NCBI RefSeq assembly: GCF_003018115.1
Contig: NZ_CP027457.1
Strand: one strand, 5' to 3'
DNA: 64,000 nucleotides
From: Escherichia coli
Lineage (GTDB): Bacteria; Pseudomonadota; Gammaproteobacteria; Enterobacterales; Enterobacteriaceae
Shown: piece after piece, positions 12,486-57,654 of the stretch
How positions within the stretch are numbered: the first letter of the stretch is position 1
Layout of the letters: the number at the start of each line of letters is the position of its first letter
The notes under the pieces: model-generated
The model's input: only the letters and a program-made list of their open reading frames with translations
Told to the model about the DNA's origin: nothing
The model's database searches: none
Translations under genes and position numbers: made by a program

Positions 12486-12569
12486 TGCGAAACCGAGATG
12501 TAAATAACGACAAAAACAAAATTGGCCGTTTCGGTCAGGGCCAACTATTGCCTGAAAAAGGGTAACGAC

Positions 12570-21125: not shown

Positions 21126-22019
21126 ATGACGAATTTAAAAGCAGTTATTCCTGTAGCGGGTCTTGGGATGCATATGTTGCCTGCCACTAAGGCGATTCCC
21201 AAAGAGATGCTACCGATCGTCGACAAGCCAATGATTCAGTACATTGTTGACGAGATTGTGGCTGCAGGGATCAAAGAAATCCTCCTGGTAACTCACGCGT
21301 CCAAGAACGCGGTCGAAAACCACTTCGACACCTCTTATGAATTAGAATCTCTCCTTGAGCAGCGCGTGAAGCGTCAACTGCTGGCGGAAGTGCAGTCCAT
21401 CTGTCCGCCGGGCGTGACCATTATGAACGTACGTCAGGGCGAACCTTTAGGTTTAGGCCACTCCATTTTATGTGCACGACCTGCCATTGGTGACAATCCA
21501 TTTGTCGTGGTACTGCCAGACGTTGTGATCGACGACGCCAGCGCCGACCCGCTGCGCTACAACCTTGCTGCCATGATTGCACGATTCAACGAAACGGGTC
21601 GTAGCCAGGTGCTGGCAAAACGTATGCCGGGTGACCTCTCTGAATACTCCGTCATTCAGACCAAAGAACCACTGGATCGTGAAGGTAAAGTCAGCCGCAT
21701 TGTTGAATTCATCGAAAAACCGGATCAGCCGCAGACGCTGGACTCAGACATCATGGCCGTTGGTCGCTATGTGCTTTCTGCCGATATTTGGCCGGAACTT
21801 GAACGCACTCAGCCTGGTGCATGGGGACGTATTCAGCTGACTGATGCCATTGCTGAACTGGCGAAAAAACAGTCCGTTGATGCCATGCTGATGACAGGTG
21901 ACAGCTACGACTGCGGTAAAAAAATGGGTTATATGCAGGCATTTGTGAAGTATGGACTACGCAACCTAAAAGAAGGGGCGAAGTTCCGTAAAGGGATTGA
22001 GAAGCTGTTAAGCGAATAA
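21126..22019 (+). CDS. galF: UTP-glucose-1-phosphate uridylyltransferase paralogue GalF
   Basis: ORF 21114..22019 trimmed to [14 protein letters not shown] (297 aa); marks the upstream border of the O-antigen locus. Confidence 0.95.
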
Positions 22020-22277
22020 TGAAAATCTGACCGGATGTAACGGTTGATAAGAAAATTATAACGGCAGTGAAGATTCGTGGCGAAAGTAATATGTTGCGAA
22101 TATTCCTGCCGTTGTTTTATATAAACAATCAGAATAACAACGAGTTAGCAATAGGATTTTAGTCAAAGTTTTCCAGGATTTTCCTTGTTTCCTGAGCGGA
22201 TTGGTAAGACAATTAGCGTTTGAATTTTTCGAGTTAAGCGCGAGTGGGTAACGCTCGTCACATCGTAGGCATGCATG

Positions 22278-22315
22278 CAGTGCTCTGGTAGCTGTAAAGC
22301 CAGGGGCGGTAGCGT
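22278..22315 (+). promoter_or_regulatory. JUMPstart element containing the ops site GGCGGTAG (22305..22312), RfaH antitermination signal
   Basis: cagtgctctggtagctgtaaagccaggggcggtagcgt read directly, upstream of the first O-antigen gene. Confidence 0.85.
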
Positions 22316-22352
22316 ATTTGCTTATTTTTATCGTGTAATCAAAGTGATTGTT

Positions 22353-22724
22353 ATGAATAAGATAATAGTTGATCTTGACGGTACTTTAACTGAGGAAGAT
22401 ACAAATGATTATACTAAAGTTAAACCAAAACTAAAAGTTGTTAAAAAATTGTATGAATTTAAAAAAATGGGATTCAGTATTGTAATAATGACAGCAAGGA
22501 ATATGCGAACATTTGATGGTAATATTGGAAAGATTAATATACATACACTTCCTGTAATCATTGACTGGCTTAATGAAAATAATATCCCGTACGATGAAGT
22601 TATTGTGGGGAAGCCATGGTGCGGTAATAAGGGATTTTATGTTGATGATCGGGCACTAAGGCCTTCTGAATTTGCAAGATTAAATCTTCAAGAGATAAAC
22701 GAATTATTTGATAAGGATAAATAA
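22353..22724 (+). CDS. HAD-superfamily phosphatase (small, subfamily IIIC-like)
   Basis: ORF 22275..22724 trimmed to MNKIIVDLDGTLT, the HAD motif I DxDGT; longer upstream start rejected because it would run through the ops element; AT-rich. Confidence 0.6.
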   Translation: MNKIIVDLDGTLTEEDTNDYTKVKPKLKVVKKLYEFKKMGFSIVIMTARNMRTFDGNIGKINIHTLPVIIDWLNENNIPYDEVIVGKPWCGNKGFYVDDRALRPSEFARLNLQEINELFDKDK

Positions 22725-31450: not shown

Positions 31451-32857
31451 ATGTCAAAGCAACAGATTGGCGTAGTCGGTATGGCAGTGATGGGGCGCAA
31501 CCTTGCGCTCAACATCGAAAGCCGTGGTTATACCGTCTCTATTTTCAACCGTTCCCGTGAAAAGACGGAAGAAGTTATTGCCGAAAATCCAGGCAAGAAA
31601 CTGGTTCCTTACTATACGGTGAAAGAGTTTGTTGAATCTCTGGAAACGCCTCGTCGCATCCTGTTAATGGTGAAAGCAGGTGCAGGCACGGATGCTGCTA
31701 TTGATTCCCTCAAGCCATACCTCGATAAAGGTGACATCATCATTGATGGTGGTAACACCTTCTTCCAGGACACCATTCGTCGTAACCGTGAGCTTTCTGC
31801 AGAAGGCTTTAACTTTATCGGTACCGGTGTCTCCGGCGGTGAAGAAGGTGCGCTGAAAGGTCCTTCCATTATGCCTGGTGGGCAGAAAGAAGCCTATGAA
31901 CTGGTTGCTCCGATCCTGACCAAAATCGCCGCAGTGGCTGAAGACGGCGAGCCATGCGTTACCTATATTGGTGCCGATGGTGCAGGTCACTATGTGAAGA
32001 TGGTTCACAACGGTATTGAATACGGCGATATGCAGCTGATTGCTGAAGCCTATTCTCTGCTTAAAGGTGGCCTGAATCTTTCCAACGAAGAACTGGCACA
32101 GACCTTTACCGAATGGAATAACGGTGAACTGAGCAGCTACCTGATCGACATCACCAAAGATATCTTCACCAAAAAAGATGAAGACGGTAACTACCTGGTT
32201 GATGTGATTCTGGATGAAGCAGCAAACAAAGGTACGGGCAAATGGACCAGCCAGAGTGCGCTGGATCTCGGCGAACCGCTGTCGCTGATTACCGAGTCTG
32301 TGTTTGCACGTTATATCTCTTCTCTGAAAGATCAGCGCGTTGCCGCGTCTAAAGTTCTCACTGGCCCGAAAGCGCAGCCAGCAGGCGATAAGGCTGAGTT
32401 CATCGAAAAAGTTCGTCGTGCGCTGTATCTGGGCAAAATCGTTTCTTACGCCCAGGGCTTCTCTCAGCTACGCGCAGCGTCTGAAGAGTACAACTGGGAT
32501 CTGAACTATGGCGAAATCGCGAAGATTTTCCGTGCTGGCTGCATCATCCGTGCGCAGTTCCTGCAGAAAATCACCGATGCCTATGCCGAAAATCCGCAAA
32601 TCGCTAACCTGCTGCTGGCTCCGTACTTTAAGCAAATTGCCGATGACTACCAGCAGGCGCTGCGTGATGTCGTTGCTTATGCGGTACAGAACGGTATCCC
32701 GGTTCCGACCTTCTCTGCGGCAGTTGCCTATTATGACAGCTACCGTTCCGCTGTTCTGCCTGCGAACCTGATCCAGGCACAACGTGACTATTTCGGTGCG
32801 CATACTTATAAGCGCATTGATAAAGAAGGTGTGTTCCATACCGAATGGCTGGATTAA
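31451..32857 (+). CDS. gnd: 6-phosphogluconate dehydrogenase (decarboxylating)
   Basis: 468 aa; [22 protein letters not shown]-terminus; marks the downstream border of the O-antigen locus. Confidence 0.95.
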
Positions 32858-32886
32858 TCTGATTTAAATCAATTAATCAATGCAAG

Positions 32887-32913
32887 GCCCGGAGGAACCC
32901 TCCGGGCTTTTTT
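32887..32913 (+). terminator. Rho-independent terminator after gnd
   Basis: gcccggagg aac cctccgggc followed by a T6 run. Confidence 0.75.
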
Positions 32914-33105
32914 ATTATACAAAGCGGCAGGTTATGGCCTTTTTTTATAATTTATGGTTAAAAAAGCGATATAATACAGAGTCGCACAGCAGGATCGCTG
33001 CCTTGACAGTTCATCCGCATCGGCGTTAAAAATCCCGCAGTAGATGAAGATGTGGTGGTGGATTAATGACCACTCTAAATGTTTAACCGGAAGAAGTCAG
33101 AGCTA

Positions 33106-34272
33106 ATGAAAATAACAATTTCAGGAACAGGTTATGTTGGTCTTTCAAATGGTATTCTGATTGCGCAAAATCACGAAGTAGTTGCATTGGATATCGTTCA
33201 GGCCAAAGTTGACATGCTTAACAAGAAGCAGTCACCGATTGTTGATAAGGAGATTGAAGAGTATCTGGCGACTAAAGATCTCAATTTCCGCGCTACGACA
33301 GATAAGTATGACGCGTATAAAAATGCCGATTACGTTATTATTGCCACGCCTACCGATTATGACCCGAAAACAAATTATTTTAATACCTCAAGCGTGGAAG
33401 CGGTCATCCGTGATGTGACAGAAATTAATCCCAACGCGGTAATGGTGATTAAATCTACAATTCCGGTAGGTTTCACCAAATCAATTAAAGAACGTCTGGG
33501 TATCGATAACCTTATTTTCTCTCCGGAATTTCTCCGTGAAGGTAAAGCCCTTTACGATAATCTCCATCCTTCACGTATTGTCATTGGTGAGCGTTCAGAA
33601 CGCGCAGAACGTTTTGCTGCGTTGTTACAGGAAGGAGCGATTAAGCAAAATATCCCGACCCTGTTTACCGACTCCACTGAAGCAGAAGCGATTAAACTTT
33701 TTGCAAACACCTACCTGGCGATGCGCGTGGCGTACTTTAACGAACTGGATAGCTACGCAGAAAGTTTAGGTCTGAATTCCCGTCAAATAATCGAAGGCGT
33801 TTGTCTCGACCCACGAATTGGCAACCATTACAACAATCCGTCGTTTGGTTATGGTGGTTATTGTCTGCCGAAAGATACCAAGCAGTTACTGGCGAACTAC
33901 CAGTCTGTGCCGAATAACCTGATTTCGGCAATTGTCGATGCTAACCGCACGCGTAAAGACTTTATTGCCGATGCCATTTTGTCACGCAAACCGCAAGTGG
34001 TGGGTATTTATCGTCTGATTATGAAGAGCGGGTCAGATAACTTCCGTGCGTCTTCCATTCAGGGGATTATGAAACGTATCAAGGCGAAAGGCGTTGAAGT
34101 GATCATATACGAGCCGGTGATGAAAGAAGACTCATTCTTCAACTCTCGCCTGGAACGAGATCTCGCCACCTTCAAACAACAAGCCGACGTCATTATTTCC
34201 AACCGTATGGCAGAAGAGCTTAAGGATGTGGCAGACAAAGTCTACACCCGCGATCTCTTTGGCAGTGACTAA
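33106..34272 (+). CDS. ugd: UDP-glucose 6-dehydrogenase
   Basis: ORF 33079..34272 trimmed to [16 protein letters not shown] (388 aa). Confidence 0.95.
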
Positions 34273-34418
34273 CATCCTGTTATCAGGGCGATTTTCGCCC
34301 TGATTCTCTTATGTTCCCTTTGTAATAATTCATTCTTTTTATCATTTATCCTATAGCATTCATGGCGATTATCGCTAAACTATGGCGACTTAAAATTATT
34401 TCGTCCGTTAGGGTAATG

Positions 34419-35399
34419 ATGAGAGTAGAAAATAATAATGTTTCTGGGCAAAACCATGACCCGGAACAGATTGATTTGATTGATTTACTGGTGCAGTTGT
34501 GGCGCGGCAAGATGACTATCATCATTTCTGTCATTGTGGCTATTGCCCTGGCTATAGGGTATCTGGCCGTTGCCAAAGAAAAGTGGACTTCCACAGCTAT
34601 TGTTACTCAACCTGATGTGGGGCAAATCGCTGGTTATACCAACGCGATGAATGTGATTTACGGTCCGGCTGTACCGAAAGTCTCCGACATTCAGGCTTCA
34701 CTTATTGGACGTTACAGCACTGCATTCTCAGCATTAGCGGAAACGCTGGATAACCAGGATGAAGCAGAAAAGCTGACCATTGAGCCTACCGTCAAAAATC
34801 AGTCATTACCTTTAGCGGTGTCTTATGTTGGTGAAACACCTGAAGGTGCGCAGAAGCAGCTGGCGAAGTATATCCAGCAAGTTGACGACCAGGTAAATGT
34901 AGAGCTGGAAAAAGACTTGAAAGACAATATCGCGCTGCGTATGAAAAACTTGCAGGACTCTTTAAGAACTCAGGAAGTAGTCGCGCAAGAGCAGAAAGAT
35001 CTGCGTATCCGTCAGATTCAGGAAGCGTTGCAGTATGCGAATCAGGCGCAGGTGACAAAACCGCAAATTCAACAGACTGGCGAAGATATCACGCAAGATA
35101 CGTTGTTCCTTTTGGGGAGCGAAGCGCTGGAGTCGATGATTAAGCATGAGGCGACCCGTCCGTTGGTGTTCTCACCAAACTACTATCAGACTCGTCAAAA
35201 CCTGCTGGATATCGAAAGCTTAAAAGTTGATGATCTTGATATTCATGCTTACCGTTATGTGATGAAACCGACGTTACCTATTCGTCGCGATAGTCCGAAA
35301 AAGGCAATTACATTGATTCTGGCAGTGCTGCTGGGCGGCATGGTTGGCGCGGGGATTGTGCTGGGGCGTAATGCTCTACGCAATTACAACGCGAAGTAA
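34419..35399 (+). CDS. wzzB: O-antigen chain-length determinant (polysaccharide co-polymerase)
   Basis: ORF 34362..35399 trimmed to MRVENNNVSGQNHD (326 aa); TM segments at both ends. Confidence 0.9.
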   Translation: MRVENNNVSGQNHDPEQIDLIDLLVQLWRGKMTIIISVIVAIALAIGYLAVAKEKWTSTAIVTQPDVGQIAGYTNAMNVIYGPAVPKVSDIQASLIGRYSTAFSALAETLDNQDEAEKLTIEPTVKNQSLPLAVSYVGETPEGAQKQLAKYIQQVDDQVNVELEKDLKDNIALRMKNLQDSLRTQEVVAQEQKDLRIRQIQEALQYANQAQVTKPQIQQTGEDITQDTLFLLGSEALESMIKHEATRPLVFSPNYYQTRQNLLDIESLKVDDLDIHAYRYVMKPTLPIRRDSPKKAITLILAVLLGGMVGAGIVLGRNALRNYNAK

Positions 35400-35421
35400 T
35401 CTTTTCGGTTTTAAAGAAAAA

Positions 35422-35454
35422 GGGCAGGGTGGTGACACCTTGCCCGTTTTTTTT
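35422..35454. terminator. Hairpin between convergent wzzB and hisI, probably a bidirectional terminator
   Basis: gggcagggtg gtgac accttgccc followed by a T8 run on the plus strand. Confidence 0.6.
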
Positions 35455-35495
35455 GCCGGATGCGACAACAACATCGCATCCGCTTACCCCGCAAC

Positions 35496-36100
35496 TCACT
35501 GATGCCGTTTACGCAGGTTCTCAATCACCGTCGTTAAATCCAGATCCTGATCCTGCAACAACACCAGCAGGTGATACATCAAGTCAGATGCCTCGTTGGT
35601 CAGCTCAAAGCGGTCATGTACCGTTGCTGCCAGCGCAGTTTCCACCCCTTCTTCCCCCACTTTCTGCGCAATGCGCTTGGTGCCGCTGGCATACAGTTTG
35701 GCGGTATAGGAGGTTTCCGGGTCGGCAGATTTGCGCTCGGCGAGCAGTTGTTCCAGTTGATACAGGAACAGCCACTGGTGAGCGGTGTTGCCGAAGCAGC
35801 TGCTGGTGCCTTTGTGGCAGGTCGGGCCGATGGGATTCGCCAGCACTAATAAAGTGTCGTTGTCGCAGTCCGGCGCAATACTCACTACGTTGAGGAAATT
35901 GCCCGACGTTTCGCCTTTGGTCCACAGTCGCTGTTTAGTGCGCGAGAAGAAGGTGACTTTGCCGCTTTCGATGGTTTTGTCTAAGGCTTCCGGGTTCATA
36001 TAGCCCAGCATTAACACTTCGCCGGATACAGCGTGTTGCACAATCACCGGCATCAGTCCGTCGGTTTTTTCCCAGTCCAGTTCGCGACGTTGTTGTTCTG

Positions 36101-36107
<7 letters not shown>
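35496..36107 (-). CDS. hisI: Bifunctional phosphoribosyl-AMP cyclohydrolase / phosphoribosyl-ATP pyrophosphatase
   Basis: 203 aa; last gene of the his operon. Confidence 0.95.
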
Positions 36108-38185
<2,078 letters not shown>

Positions 38186-38186
<1 letters not shown>

Positions 38187-39252
38187 TACAGCACTCCTTT
38201 CGACGAGGGCAGGGTGTCGCCTTCCACGCGGATGGCCTGGCGCAGGGTGCGACCAAAGGCTTTGAACAGGCTCTCTACACGGTGGTGATCGTTTTTACCT
38301 TTGGTTTTCAGGTGTAGCGTCACGCCCATGGTGTAAGAGAGCGAACGGAAGAAGTGCTCGATCATTTCAGTGCTGAGATCGCCCACGCGCTGGTAGGTAA
38401 ATTCAGCTTTATATTCCAGGTGCGGGCGACCAGAGATATCCAGTGCACAGCGGGCAAGGCATTCGTCCATCGGCAGCACAAAACCAAAGCGGCAAATACC
38501 GCGTTTGTCGCCAAGAGCAATTTTTAATGCTTCGCCCAGCGCCAGGCCGGTATCTTCGACGGTGTGGTGATCGTCGATATAGAGGTCGCCTTTAACGTTG
38601 ATTTCCATCCGGAAACCGCCGTGGGTGGCGATCTGATCCAGCATGTGATCAAAGAATCCAACGCCGGTATTAATCTTGCTGCCACCTTCACGATCCAGCC
38701 ACACCTGGACGTCAATTTGCGTCTCTTTGGTGTTGCGCACTACATGGGCGTAACGGTCTCGTTTAGTGAGTTGCTCGCCAATCATTGGCCAGTTCAGGGT
38801 TTCGCGGTCGTAGCGTAAACCATTAATACCCATGTTTTCAGCCAGTTGAATATCGGTCGCGCGATCGCCAATCACATAACTGTTGGCGCGATCCATCGCT
38901 TGCTCAGCGAGATAACGCTCCACCAGTTTTACTTTCGGCTTACGGCAGTCGCACTCATCGGCGGGCAGGTGCGGACAAATCAGCACTTCATCAAACTGCA
39001 CGCCTTGTGAGGTGAAGATCTGCATCATCAGGTTGTGTGGGCCATCGAAATCCGCCTGCGGGAAACTTTGTGTTCCCAGACCATCCTGATTAGTGATCAT
39101 CACCGGCTTGTAGCCCGCTTTTTGCAGCTTCAGCAGCTCCGGGATCACGCCAGGTTCAAAGGCGAGTTTGTCAAAACGGTCCACCTGAAAATCACTCGGC
39201 GGTTCGCTAATCAGGGTTCCATCGCGATCGATAAAAAGATACTTCTGACTCA

Positions 39253-39253
<1 letters not shown>
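38186..39253 (-). CDS. hisB: Bifunctional histidinol-phosphatase / imidazoleglycerol-phosphate dehydratase
   Basis: 355 aa; [17 protein letters not shown] motif at the N-terminus. Confidence 0.95.
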
Positions 39254-41624
<2,371 letters not shown>

Positions 41625-41629
41625 GGCGA

Positions 41630-42529
41630 TCACTCCATCATTTTCTCAATCGGCAGGACCAGGATTGAACTGGCTCCCAGCGCTTTCAGTTTTTCCATCG
41701 TTTCCCAGAACAGGGTTTCGCTACTCACCATGTGCATCGCTACGCGCTGTTGATCACCTGCCAGCGGCAGAATAGTTGGGCGTTCGGCACCTGGCAGCAG
41801 GGCGATGACTTCATCCAGACGTTCAGTCGGTGCGTGCATCATGATGTATTTTGATTCGCGCGCCTGGATCACGCCCTGAATACGGGTCAGCAGCTTGTCG
41901 ATCAGTTGCTGTTTAGATTCTTCCATTTCGCCATCGCGCTGGATCAGGCAGGCTTTCGAGCGGTAGATAACTTCGACTTCGCGCAGGCCGTTAGCTTCCA
42001 GCGTGGCACCGGTGGAAACCAGATCGCAAATCGCATCCGCCAGTCCGGCGCGCGGGGCGACTTCAACAGAACCGTTCAGTAAGCAGGATTTAAAAGAGAT
42101 GCCTTTCTGGTCGAGATAACGCTTGAGCAGGTGAGGATAAGAGGTGGCGATACGTTTACCGTTTAAGGAGAGCGGACCGTCCCAGGCTTCATCAACCGGC
42201 GTTGCCAGCGAAAGGCGGCAGCCGCCGAAATCCAGTCGACGCAGGGTAAAGTAGCGCGGATCTTCACCCTGGGCTCGGCGGTTAAGCAGCTCTTCTTCCA
42301 GCACGTTTTCGCCGATAATCCCAAGGTCTACCACGCCGTCCATTACCAGACCGGGAATGTCGTCGTCACGCACGCGCAGAATATCAATCGGCATGTTTTC
42401 TGCCATCGCGATCAGGCGCTGGGTGTGAAGATTGATTTTAATGCCACAGCGCGCCAGCAATTCGCGTGAGTCATCACTTAAACGGCCGGATTTCTGCATA
42501 GCTATGCGTAAACGAGTGTTGTCTGTCAT
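41630..42529 (-). CDS. hisG: ATP phosphoribosyltransferase
   Basis: ORF 41630..42568 trimmed to [15 protein letters not shown] (299 aa). Confidence 0.95.
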
Positions 42530-42577
42530 TTTCTTATTCCTCTTTAAACCTGTCTGAACCGTTATCAACCGCGCAAT

Positions 42578-42610
42578 AAAAAAGCCCCCGGAAGGTGATC
42601 TTCCGGGGGC
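42578..42610 (-). terminator. his attenuator terminator hairpin
   Basis: Minus strand reads gcccccggaag atcac cttccgggggc followed by a U-run, between hisL and hisG. Confidence 0.85.
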
Positions 42611-42674
42611 TTTCTCATGCGTTCATGCACCACTGGAAGATCTGAATGTCTTCCAGCACACATCGCCTGAAAGA

Positions 42675-42725
42675 CTAGTCAGGATGATGGTGATGATGGT
42701 GGTGTTTAAATTGAACGCGTGTCAT
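42675..42725 (-). CDS. hisL: his operon leader peptide, 16 aa with seven consecutive His codons
   Basis: Minus strand atg aca cgc gtt caa ttt aaa cac cac cat cat cac cat cat cct gac tag = MTRVQFKHHHHHHHPD. Confidence 0.95.
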   Translation of the reverse strand: MTRVQFKHHHHHHHPD

Positions 42726-42764
42726 AAAAGTCTCTGTGAATGTTTATTCAACTGATGTCTTTTA

Positions 42765-42793
42765 ACCTAAACCACTTTCACGTTAGAAAGCAA
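42765..42793 (-). promoter_or_regulatory. Candidate his promoter (TTGCTT -35, 17 bp spacer, TTAGGT -10)
   Basis: Hexamers read on the minus strand upstream of hisL; exact -10 assignment uncertain. Confidence 0.45.
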
Positions 42794-42975
42794 GGGCTTT
42801 TTTATATATTTTATGGCGATGGATTTGTTTAATGAATGAGCGGGGAAAGGAGGGGGCTAAGAGGAGTGTCCCCTAACCTGACGGCACCCAAAATAGCGAA
42901 ACCTGGATTTTTCGTCTCACTGACAATGTCTTGATCTACAGACTAATTAATAAATAGTTAATTAACGCCTATCAT

Positions 42976-42993
42976 TGTACAATGAACTGTACA
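42976..42993 (+). promoter_or_regulatory. Tandem TGTACA palindromes, candidate YefM-YoeB operator
   Basis: tgtacaatgaactgtaca sits 15 bp upstream of the yefM start codon. Confidence 0.7.
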
Positions 42994-43008
42994 AAAGAGG
43001 AGATTGAA

Positions 43009-43260
43009 ATGCGTACAATTAGCTACAGCGAAGCGCGCCAGAATTTGTCGGCAACAATGATGAAAGCCGTTGAAGATCATGCCCCGATCCTTATTACTCG
43101 TCAGAATGGAGAGGCTTGTGTTCTGATGTCACTCGAAGAATACAACTCGCTGGAAGAGACGGCTTATCTACTGCGCTCCCCCGCTAACGCCCGGAGATTG
43201 ATGGACTCAATCGATAGCCTGAAATCAGGCAAAGGAACGGAAAAGGACATTATTGAGTGA
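43009..43260 (+). CDS. yefM: Antitoxin YefM (Phd/YefM family)
   Basis: ORF 42982..43260 trimmed to [14 protein letters not shown] (83 aa). Confidence 0.9.
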
Positions 43261-43511
43261 AACTAATCTGGTCTGAGGAGTCATGGGATGATTATCTGTA
43301 CTGGCAGGAAACAGATAAGCGAATTGTTAAAAAGATCATTGAACTTATCAAAGATACCCGCAGAACACCATTTGAAGGTAAGGGGAAGCCAGAACCCCTG
43401 AAGCATAATTTGTCAGGCTTCTGGTCCCGACGCATTACAGAGGAGCACCGTCTGGTATACGCGGTTACCGACGATTCACTGCTCATTGCAGCATGTCGTT
43501 ATCATTATTGA
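43257..43511 (+). CDS. yoeB: Toxin YoeB, ribosome-dependent mRNA interferase (RelE/ParE superfamily)
   Basis: 84 aa; ATGA overlap with yefM. Confidence 0.9.
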
Positions 43512-43593
43512 ACAGATTCATTCATAGAATGAATTGTCAGTTTTGATACGCTAGCGTAGCCTTATAGATCTAAGGTGTATCAGGAGATAACGG

Positions 43594-44418
43594 ATGAAAA
43601 AGGTCGCAATTGTCGGGTTAGGGTGGTTAGGCATGCCGCTGGCGATGTCACTTTCAGCGCGAGGCTGGCAAGTCACCGGGAGTAAAACCACACAAGATGG
43701 TGTCGAAGCGGCCCGAATGAGTGGCATTGATAGCTATCTGCTTCGCATGGAGCCTGAGTTAGTTTGCGATTCTGACGATCTGGATGCCCTGATGGATGCC
43801 GATGCGCTGGTCATTACGCTTCCGGCACGTCGTAGCGGCCCCGGCGATGAGTTCTATTTACAAGCGGTACAAGAGTTAGTGGATAGCGCGCTGGCCCATC
43901 GTATTCCCCGAATTATTTTTACCAGCTCGACGTCTGTCTATGGCGACGCGCAAGGCACGGTCAAAGAAACTACCCCGCGTAATCCGGTAACCAACAGTGG
44001 ACGAGTATTAGAAGAACTCGAAGACTGGCTGCACAATTTACCTGGTACTTCGGTCGATATTCTGCGTCTTGCGGGTCTTGTCGGACCGGGACGTCATCCC
44101 GGACGCTTCTTTGCCGGAAAAACCGCGCCTGATGGTGAACATGGTGTTAATTTAGTCCATTTAGAAGATGTTATTGGCGCTATCACTCTGTTGTTACAGG
44201 CACCTAAAGGCGGACACATCTATAATATATGTGCGCCAGCTCACCCTGCGCGTAATGTTTTCTATCCGCAGATGGCCCGTTTACTGGGGCTGGAGCCTCC
44301 GCAGTTCAGAAATAGTCTGGACAGCGGCAAAGGTAAGATTATTGATGGCAGTCGGATTTGTAATGAACTGGGATTTGAATACCAGTATCCCGATCCGCTG
44401 GTAATGCCGCTGGAGTAA
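43594..44418 (+). CDS. yeeZ: NAD-dependent epimerase/dehydratase family protein
   Basis: 274 aa; N-terminal Rossmann motif KVAIVGLGWLG. Confidence 0.8.
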   Translation: MKKVAIVGLGWLGMPLAMSLSARGWQVTGSKTTQDGVEAARMSGIDSYLLRMEPELVCDSDDLDALMDADALVITLPARRSGPGDEFYLQAVQELVDSALAHRIPRIIFTSSTSVYGDAQGTVKETTPRNPVTNSGRVLEELEDWLHNLPGTSVDILRLAGLVGPGRHPGRFFAGKTAPDGEHGVNLVHLEDVIGAITLLLQAPKGGHIYNICAPAHPARNVFYPQMARLLGLEPPQFRNSLDSGKGKIIDGSRICNELGFEYQYPDPLVMPLE

Positions 44419-45393: not shown

Positions 45394-45659
45394 AGAAAAA
45401 TTATTATGACAAGCCTCTCATTCTCTTGTCATTTCCCCCCCATTTAGGCACAATGCGCCGCTGTCAAAAAATGACTAAAAACCGACGTTTCATCAGCGTC
45501 GGTTATTTTTTGCTTCAAACCAATCATTCATACCAAGAGGCCGGGCTTCGTACCGGATAGATATTTACTAAAAATCGACAGTTGTTGTCGCTGAGGAATC
45601 CAAAAAAATGGGGCAATTTTTTGCTTACGCGACGGTTATCACCGTAAAGGAGAATGACC

Positions 45660-57578: not shown

Positions 57579-57654
57579 TGGCTCCTCTGACTGGACTCGA
57601 ACCAGTGACATACGGATTAACAGTCCGCCGTTCTACCGACTGAACTACAGAGGA
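57579..57654 (-). tRNA. asnV: tRNA-Asn (GUU anticodon)
   Basis: 76 nt; reverse complement reads TCCTCTGTAGTTCAGTCGGTAGAACGGCGGACTGTTAATCCGTATGTCACTGGTTCGAGTCCAGTCAGAGGAGCCA; gene name assigned from K-12 synteny. Confidence 0.95.

Follow-up and report, generated by a model that had tools for sequence, protein, structure and literature searches.

Genes of the his leader locus

The window considered here is a stretch of Escherichia coli DNA of 64,000 nucleotides (contig NZ_CP027457.1), the minus strand of which carries the his operon together with its leader. Eight his open reading frames (ORFs) in total extend from 42529 to 35496 on this strand, and the leader lies between hisG and the divergent yefM-yoeB pair. 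The genes of this part of the window are the following.

42675..42725, minus strand: hisL leader peptide gene, 16 codons and TAG, which translates to MTRVQFKHHHHHHHPD and is annotated as hisL in the identical RefSeq sequence
41630..42529, minus strand: hisG (ATP phosphoribosyltransferase), the first structural gene, with ATG at 42529 and the Shine-Dalgarno sequence AAGAGG within 42545-42527
35496..41624, minus strand: his ORFs after hisG, given by their ORF coordinates and the annotation of syntenic RefSeq loci
43009-43260, plus strand: yefM, upstream of hisL and divergent from it
43257-43511, plus strand: yoeB, upstream and divergent, toxin-antitoxin pair with yefM

The hisG, hisD, and hisC genes passed the NCBIfam equivalog cut-offs and are located on the same strand downstream of the leader. 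A longer hisG ORF of 312 amino acids with a TTG start at 42568, which overlaps the attenuator region, was rejected, as the annotated and Shine-Dalgarno-supported start is the ATG at 42529. On the other side of the leader the mechanical yefM ORF starts at 42982, the annotated start corresponding to 43009, and a sigma-70-like site TTAATA-17-TATCAT (42947-42975, plus strand) is found 5' of yefM.

The interval 42578-42725, to which the initial annotation had assigned the his attenuator, begins exactly at the hisL ATG and ends exactly at the last position of the U-run of the terminator. Outside it lie the promoter and the 5' untranslated region (about 42793-42726) on one side and on the other the 49-nt spacer that separates the U-run from the hisG ATG.

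Leader peptide, promoter, and pause signal

The hisL frame was read from the sequence of the minus strand with its start ATG at 42725 and its stop TAG at 42677-42675. The elements that accompany it in the promoter-proximal part of the leader are as follows.

42684..42704, minus strand: run of seven His codons, hisL codons 8-14, CAC CAC CAT CAT CAC CAT CAT
42764..42793, minus strand: probable hisL promoter, -35-like TTGCTT (42793-42788), 18-nt spacer, and -10-like TAGGTT (42769-42764)
42683-42666, minus strand: his pause hairpin, the upper part of helix A:B, with a 5-bp stem and an 8-nt loop that holds the hisL stop codon
42654..42664, minus strand: pause signal, with G(-10) at 42664, U(-1) at 42655 as the predicted paused 3' end, and G(+1) at 42654

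The 16-codon hisL ORF with seven tandem His codons, as claimed by the initial annotation, was seen at its place on the minus strand. Such a run of His codons is characterized as the sensor of His-tRNA supply (PMC4046918). The pattern (CAY)7 has one exact match in the 64-kb window and none in 100 dinucleotide-preserving shuffles, which bears on the reading that a short ORF stands by chance beside an ordinary terminator, for example that of a neighbouring gene, without any regulatory coupling. The purely mechanical nature of the ORF listing is the only point in favour of this reading, which deserves practically no credence given the absence of (CAY)7 from the shuffles and the gene context: since yefM and yoeB are divergent, no gene ends at the hairpin, and it is therefore not an ordinary end-of-gene terminator. 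A plus-strand ORF at 42684-42755 (MMVMMVV...) was rejected as mechanical, because it reads the antisense of the His codons.

The hexamers TTGCTT and TAGGTT, which stand at a suitable distance upstream of hisL, are presumably those of the his promoter; a consensus promoter scan did not call them, each fitting three of the six consensus positions. Counted back from the U-run by the reported 180-nt length of the terminated leader RNA (PMC10989985), the transcription start would probably lie at about 42759-42757.

The his pause is described as a hairpin at -30 to -11 with the consensus G-10 Y-1 G+1, in which the +1 nucleotide is G, and the upper stem of A:B is assigned the role of the pause hairpin (PMC9291695). 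The 5-bp stem, the 8-nt loop, and the 11-nt spacer of the present leader agree with this description at the level of sequence, and 42655 is accordingly given here as the probable exact pause position.

Attenuator terminator and alternative helices

Downstream of the His codons the leader contains the segments of two alternative sets of helices, the last of which is the terminator; the energies given below refer to each helix folded in isolation.

42656..42692, minus strand: helix A:B, -12.1 kcal/mol
42648..42676, minus strand: helix B:C, first antiterminator-state helix, -10.8 kcal/mol
42632..42657, minus strand: helix C:D, termination-state helix, -11.9 kcal/mol
42597..42642, minus strand: helix D:E, the antiterminator proper, which sequesters the 5' terminator arm, -15.2 kcal/mol
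42578..42616, minus strand: attenuator, intrinsic terminator E:F, 14 core pairs, about -30.8 kcal/mol (folded as 42616-42577), U-run end at 42578

The terminator consists of arm E (42613-42600; AAAGCCCCCGGAAG), the loop AUCAC (42599-42595), and arm F (42594-42581; CUUCCGGGGGCUUU), and the U6 (T6) tract, which has its last base at 42578, precedes ATT. The GC-rich hairpin with its U-run 3' of hisL, which had been pointed out by the initial annotation, was found in the sequence with both arms and the T6 tract, and it is located between the hisL ORF and hisG. As a whole the 161-nt leader has a folding energy of -68.4 kcal/mol, compared with -36.9 +/- 3.8 kcal/mol in its shuffles (z = -8.3).

The consensus terminator scan missed the attenuator, because its stem runs by A-U pairs into the U-run and so fails the tail rule of the scan. 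Both this miss and that of the promoter scan are treated as reflecting the rules of the scans and not as evidence against the element.

The attenuator hairpin (42575-42615) is close to a palindrome and has an A-run on its 5' flank, and therefore a sub-threshold His_leader match of 31.9 bits arises on the terminator hairpin in the plus strand; it was rejected as a product of chance or palindrome. In the plus strand the hairpin has a poor tail, CUUUCU, and it does not stand at the end of any plus-strand gene.

The two sets of helices, B:C with D:E and A:B with C:D and E:F, are mutually exclusive, and region A overlaps the His codons. Without a ribosome the growing transcript folds A:B, next C:D, and next E:F. 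The ribosome was represented by masking all sequence up to 12 nt beyond the His codon in the A-site, with His codons 9-13 tried in turn, and for a transcript that ends before arm F the minimum-energy fold with the ribosome so placed is B:C with D:E. Thus both the A:B/C:D/E:F and the B:C/D:E structures were obtained by the RNA folding that the initial annotation had proposed as a check of the attenuator.

In equilibrium folds of the full leader the terminator was always present, with the footprint masked as well as without it, and masking at each His codon left the antiterminator absent, because E:F is too stable. Since the antiterminator was obtained only with the ribosome masked and before synthesis of the 3' arm F, the switch is kinetic, and the antiterminated state has support only under the kinetic assumption that F is unmade and that B:C forms before D exists. 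When D has just emerged and the ribosome is stalled, C:D is slightly favoured over B:C in the fold, and when the ribosome is at the stop codon, the minimum-energy fold before F is D:E. The outcome must therefore follow the order of synthesis, B:C before D, which is the assumption of the classical model (PMC4046918).

Identity to the E. coli K-12 leader and spread in E. coli

The Rfam His_leader model (RF00514) matches the leader with 131.6 bits against the gathering score of 49, over positions 1-126 of the 126 of the model, at 42699-42576 of the minus strand. Among the Rfam matches with E <= 1 at 41500-44000 there was no T-box or other riboswitch covariance model. Sub-threshold matches to RcsR1, Thr_leader, NsiR1, ctRNA_p42d, and several miRNA families fall on the terminator hairpin and were rejected as chance or palindrome effects.

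The alignment with E. coli K-12 MG1655 showed 100% identity throughout the promoter, the hisL frame, and the attenuator. The statement of the initial annotation that the sequence matches exactly holds for the interval 42578-42725, which shows the same 100% identity. On the 3' side of the attenuator the first departure from K-12 is at 42533, where the window has G in place of C, 4 nt ahead of the hisG ATG, and further differences are found upstream of the promoter, towards yefM. A 331-nt leader query was present in 5423 of 5426 complete E. coli genomes, and in 5085 of these 5423 carriers the 148-nt interval is at least 99% identical; RefSeq always labels the leader as both "hisL: his operon leader peptide" and "His leader region".

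The element is almost certainly the his operon leader of E. coli in its ordinary textbook form, a ribosome-mediated transcription attenuator, and nothing in the sequence was seen to speak against the his attenuator reading. This leader, being identical in sequence to the model system, is already known in full detail, and the present copy adds nothing to the knowledge of attenuation. It serves only as an annotation anchor, by which the his operon is placed on the minus strand from 42.7 kb down to 35.5 kb, with its 5' end defined, and the region is recognized as the E. coli his/O-antigen/colanic-acid neighbourhood. The initial annotation, which used the attenuator for confirming strand and operon boundaries, was right about the strand and about the 5' end of the operon.

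Conservation across genera

Representative genomes were scanned for six His codons followed by Pro and Asp codons, a stop codon not being required in the pattern, which gave 120 loci; about 70 of them are short leader ORFs that end in ...HHHHHHPD and belong to Enterobacterales and Aeromonas. For 70 distinct leaders from other Enterobacterales and from Aeromonas, aligned with the window, the pairs were counted for each conformation. The termination set (A:B, C:D, and E:F) had 97.1% of cells paired, against 36-56% in slid controls, and the antitermination set (B:C and D:E) had 96.8%, against 43-52%. By helix, over the same 70 leaders, the paired cells made up 95% in A:B, 98.0% in C:D, and 98.5% in E:F, and 98.1% and 95.3% in B:C and D:E, respectively. 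All these percentages are somewhat inflated, as the set was chosen by the peptide pattern, the structure was derived from the sequence of the window, and the leaders are related.

Compensatory changes were found in E:F, where C-G is replaced by U-A at one pair in 23 leaders and G-C by A-U at another in 13, and the outermost pair of D:E changes from G-C to A-U in 11 leaders. At alignment column 52 an A-to-G change in 17 leaders keeps both B:C (as U-G) and C:D (as G-U) paired, which is how a base common to two alternative helices should behave.

The conservation of the hisL ORF, the alternative helices, and the terminator 5' of hisG across genera, and the full-length Rfam match, also stand against the chance-ORF reading, which is excluded by statistics, gene context, and conservation.

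The peptide around the His run (VQF.HHHHHHPD) is strongly conserved across the leaders. In several Enterobacter and Citrobacter genomes (loci L013, L017, L018, L065, L083, L092, L097, L122, and others) an upstream in-frame ATG lengthens hisL to 24-28 codons, for example MNKHSSRIYMTRVQFK..., and these extended frames may be purely mechanical extensions of the ORF.

Comparison with known leaders

The hisL leaders of E. coli K-12 and Salmonella enterica have the same 16-residue peptide, seven His codons, A-F helices, and place 5' of hisG, and there is no difference from K-12 hisL inside the element. The leaders trpL, thrL, leuL, pheL, and ilvL follow the same logic, with a short ORF in which the cognate codons are frequent, with alternative helices, and with an intrinsic terminator before the first structural gene, but their regulatory codons differ. 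The Thr_leader model scored 22.8 bits on the his leader against a threshold of 55. In comparison with the trp scheme, where 1:2 and 3:4 alternate with 2:3, his uses three termination-state and two antitermination-state helices.

Outside this group Bacteroides-type his attenuators (L057, L059, and L116) possess a 15-codon ORF, MKSFATHHHHHHPDE or MKNIVAHHHHHHPDE, with six His codons followed by Pro-Asp. In L059 (8110-7043, minus strand) the ORF is followed by a hairpin with a T-run at about 8015-7968 and then by hisG and hisD. The intervening RNA of this type of leader differs in sequence and reaches 28.1 bits with the Rfam His_leader model, below the threshold of 49. The L059-type element is a his leader-peptide attenuator outside Proteobacteria, which shares the His6-Pro-Asp ending but has no bearing on the window itself.

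Proposed mechanism and additional regulatory readings

In the present leader the sequence elements, the identity to K-12, the two exclusive helix sets, and the conservation across genera were observed directly, and to them the scheme below adds, from the literature, the effect of His-tRNA, the polymerase pause, and the kinetics of the folding order. Transcription would begin about 35 nt upstream of hisL, and RNA polymerase would pause near 42655 behind the A:B pause hairpin, to be reached there by the ribosome on hisL. With ample charged tRNA-His this ribosome would cross the seven His codons to the stop codon, B would be either occluded or paired with A, and C:D and E:F would form, so that transcription would stop 49 nt before hisG and the leader RNA would be about 180 nt long. 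Under a shortage of charged tRNA-His the ribosome would stall on the His codons and cover A, B:C would form once C emerges and then D:E, and with D:E formed E would be unavailable when F is made, so that the polymerase would read into hisGDCBHAFI. If there is no translation, A:B, C:D, and E:F would form and the operon would stay off. This scheme agrees with the descriptions for Salmonella and E. coli (PMC4046918, PMC9291695, and PMC10989985); for the identical K-12 and the near-identical Salmonella leader, readthrough is reported to rise when charged tRNA-His is limiting, with termination at the U-run otherwise (PMC4046918, PMC10989985).

A DnaA-dependent riboswitch model extends this classical mechanism and does not replace it. 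According to this model the HisL leader RNA contains "rDnaA boxes" to which DnaA attaches; the bound DnaA keeps the ribosome from reaching the His codons, D:E does not form, and attenuation is promoted in this way. The his expression is reported to be higher in dnaA mutants, dependent on the hisL-SL region, and there is also RIP evidence (PMC10989985); any such boxes must occur in the present leader as well, because its sequence is that of K-12. On the other hand, the authors of the model themselves call it "possible", the proposed boxes each deviate from the consensus at two positions, and promoter effects are also mentioned (PMC10989985), while the ribosome-only classical model already explains the structure and the conservation of the leader. 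Such a role of DnaA is therefore considered rather unlikely.

A function in trans, independent of the one in cis, is very improbable for either the terminated leader RNA (about 180 nt) or the HisL peptide of 16 residues. Two facts fit such a function: the terminated leader accumulates as a separate RNA species, the turnover of which proceeds by RNase III cleavage within E:F (PMC5371410), and the peptide motif described above is strongly conserved. However, the RNase III cleavage concerns the turnover of the leader and not the switch, the peptide-coding bases take part in helix A:B and in the positioning of the ribosome, which accounts for their conservation, and a function in trans has no known target or phenotype, nor does anything in the present analysis point to one. 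Overall, the ribosome-only switch would be incomplete, lacking either a trans factor such as DnaA on the rDnaA boxes or a leader RNA or HisL peptide acting in trans, with a probability that we regard as quite low. Any extra regulatory layer would belong to the well-known element and not to this window, since the sequence is identical to K-12. The classical ribosome-mediated attenuator is the reading kept here.

Other observations in the window

The O-antigen cluster occupies 22278-31400 (plus strand) between galF and gnd, with a JUMPstart element (22278-22316; 56.9 bits) before it, and by best-match annotation its wzx and wzy belong to the O20/O137 family. A query of 22000-36000 was covered to at least 80% in 5 of 5426 complete E. 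coli genomes, with 98.1-98.6% identity. For the large chunks tested within window positions 1-25000, no complete RefSeq E. coli genome was at least 99% identical across them. The part at 1-22227, which is the colanic-acid cluster, is 99.2% identical to strain EC93 with the match ending near galF/JUMPstart, and the O-antigen part matches other strains; this switch of matches looks like the usual recombination break of the O-antigen locus.

Three tRNA-Asn(GUU) genes (57579-57654, minus strand; 59987-60062, minus strand; 61811-61886, plus strand) are found among nac, cbl, and yeeO. The tRNA-Asn stretch is without an island, and the E. coli matches H29-H33 hold about 11-12 kb extra there, including a phage tailspike gene. 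Two further Rfam matches exceed their thresholds: the algC RNA motif at 12516-12565 (plus strand; 78.2 bits against 33.8) within the colanic-acid (wca/cps) cluster, and the enterobacterial sRNA STnc240 at 45439-45513 (plus strand; 68.2 bits against 55), which is located after yeeY and before yoeI/plaP.
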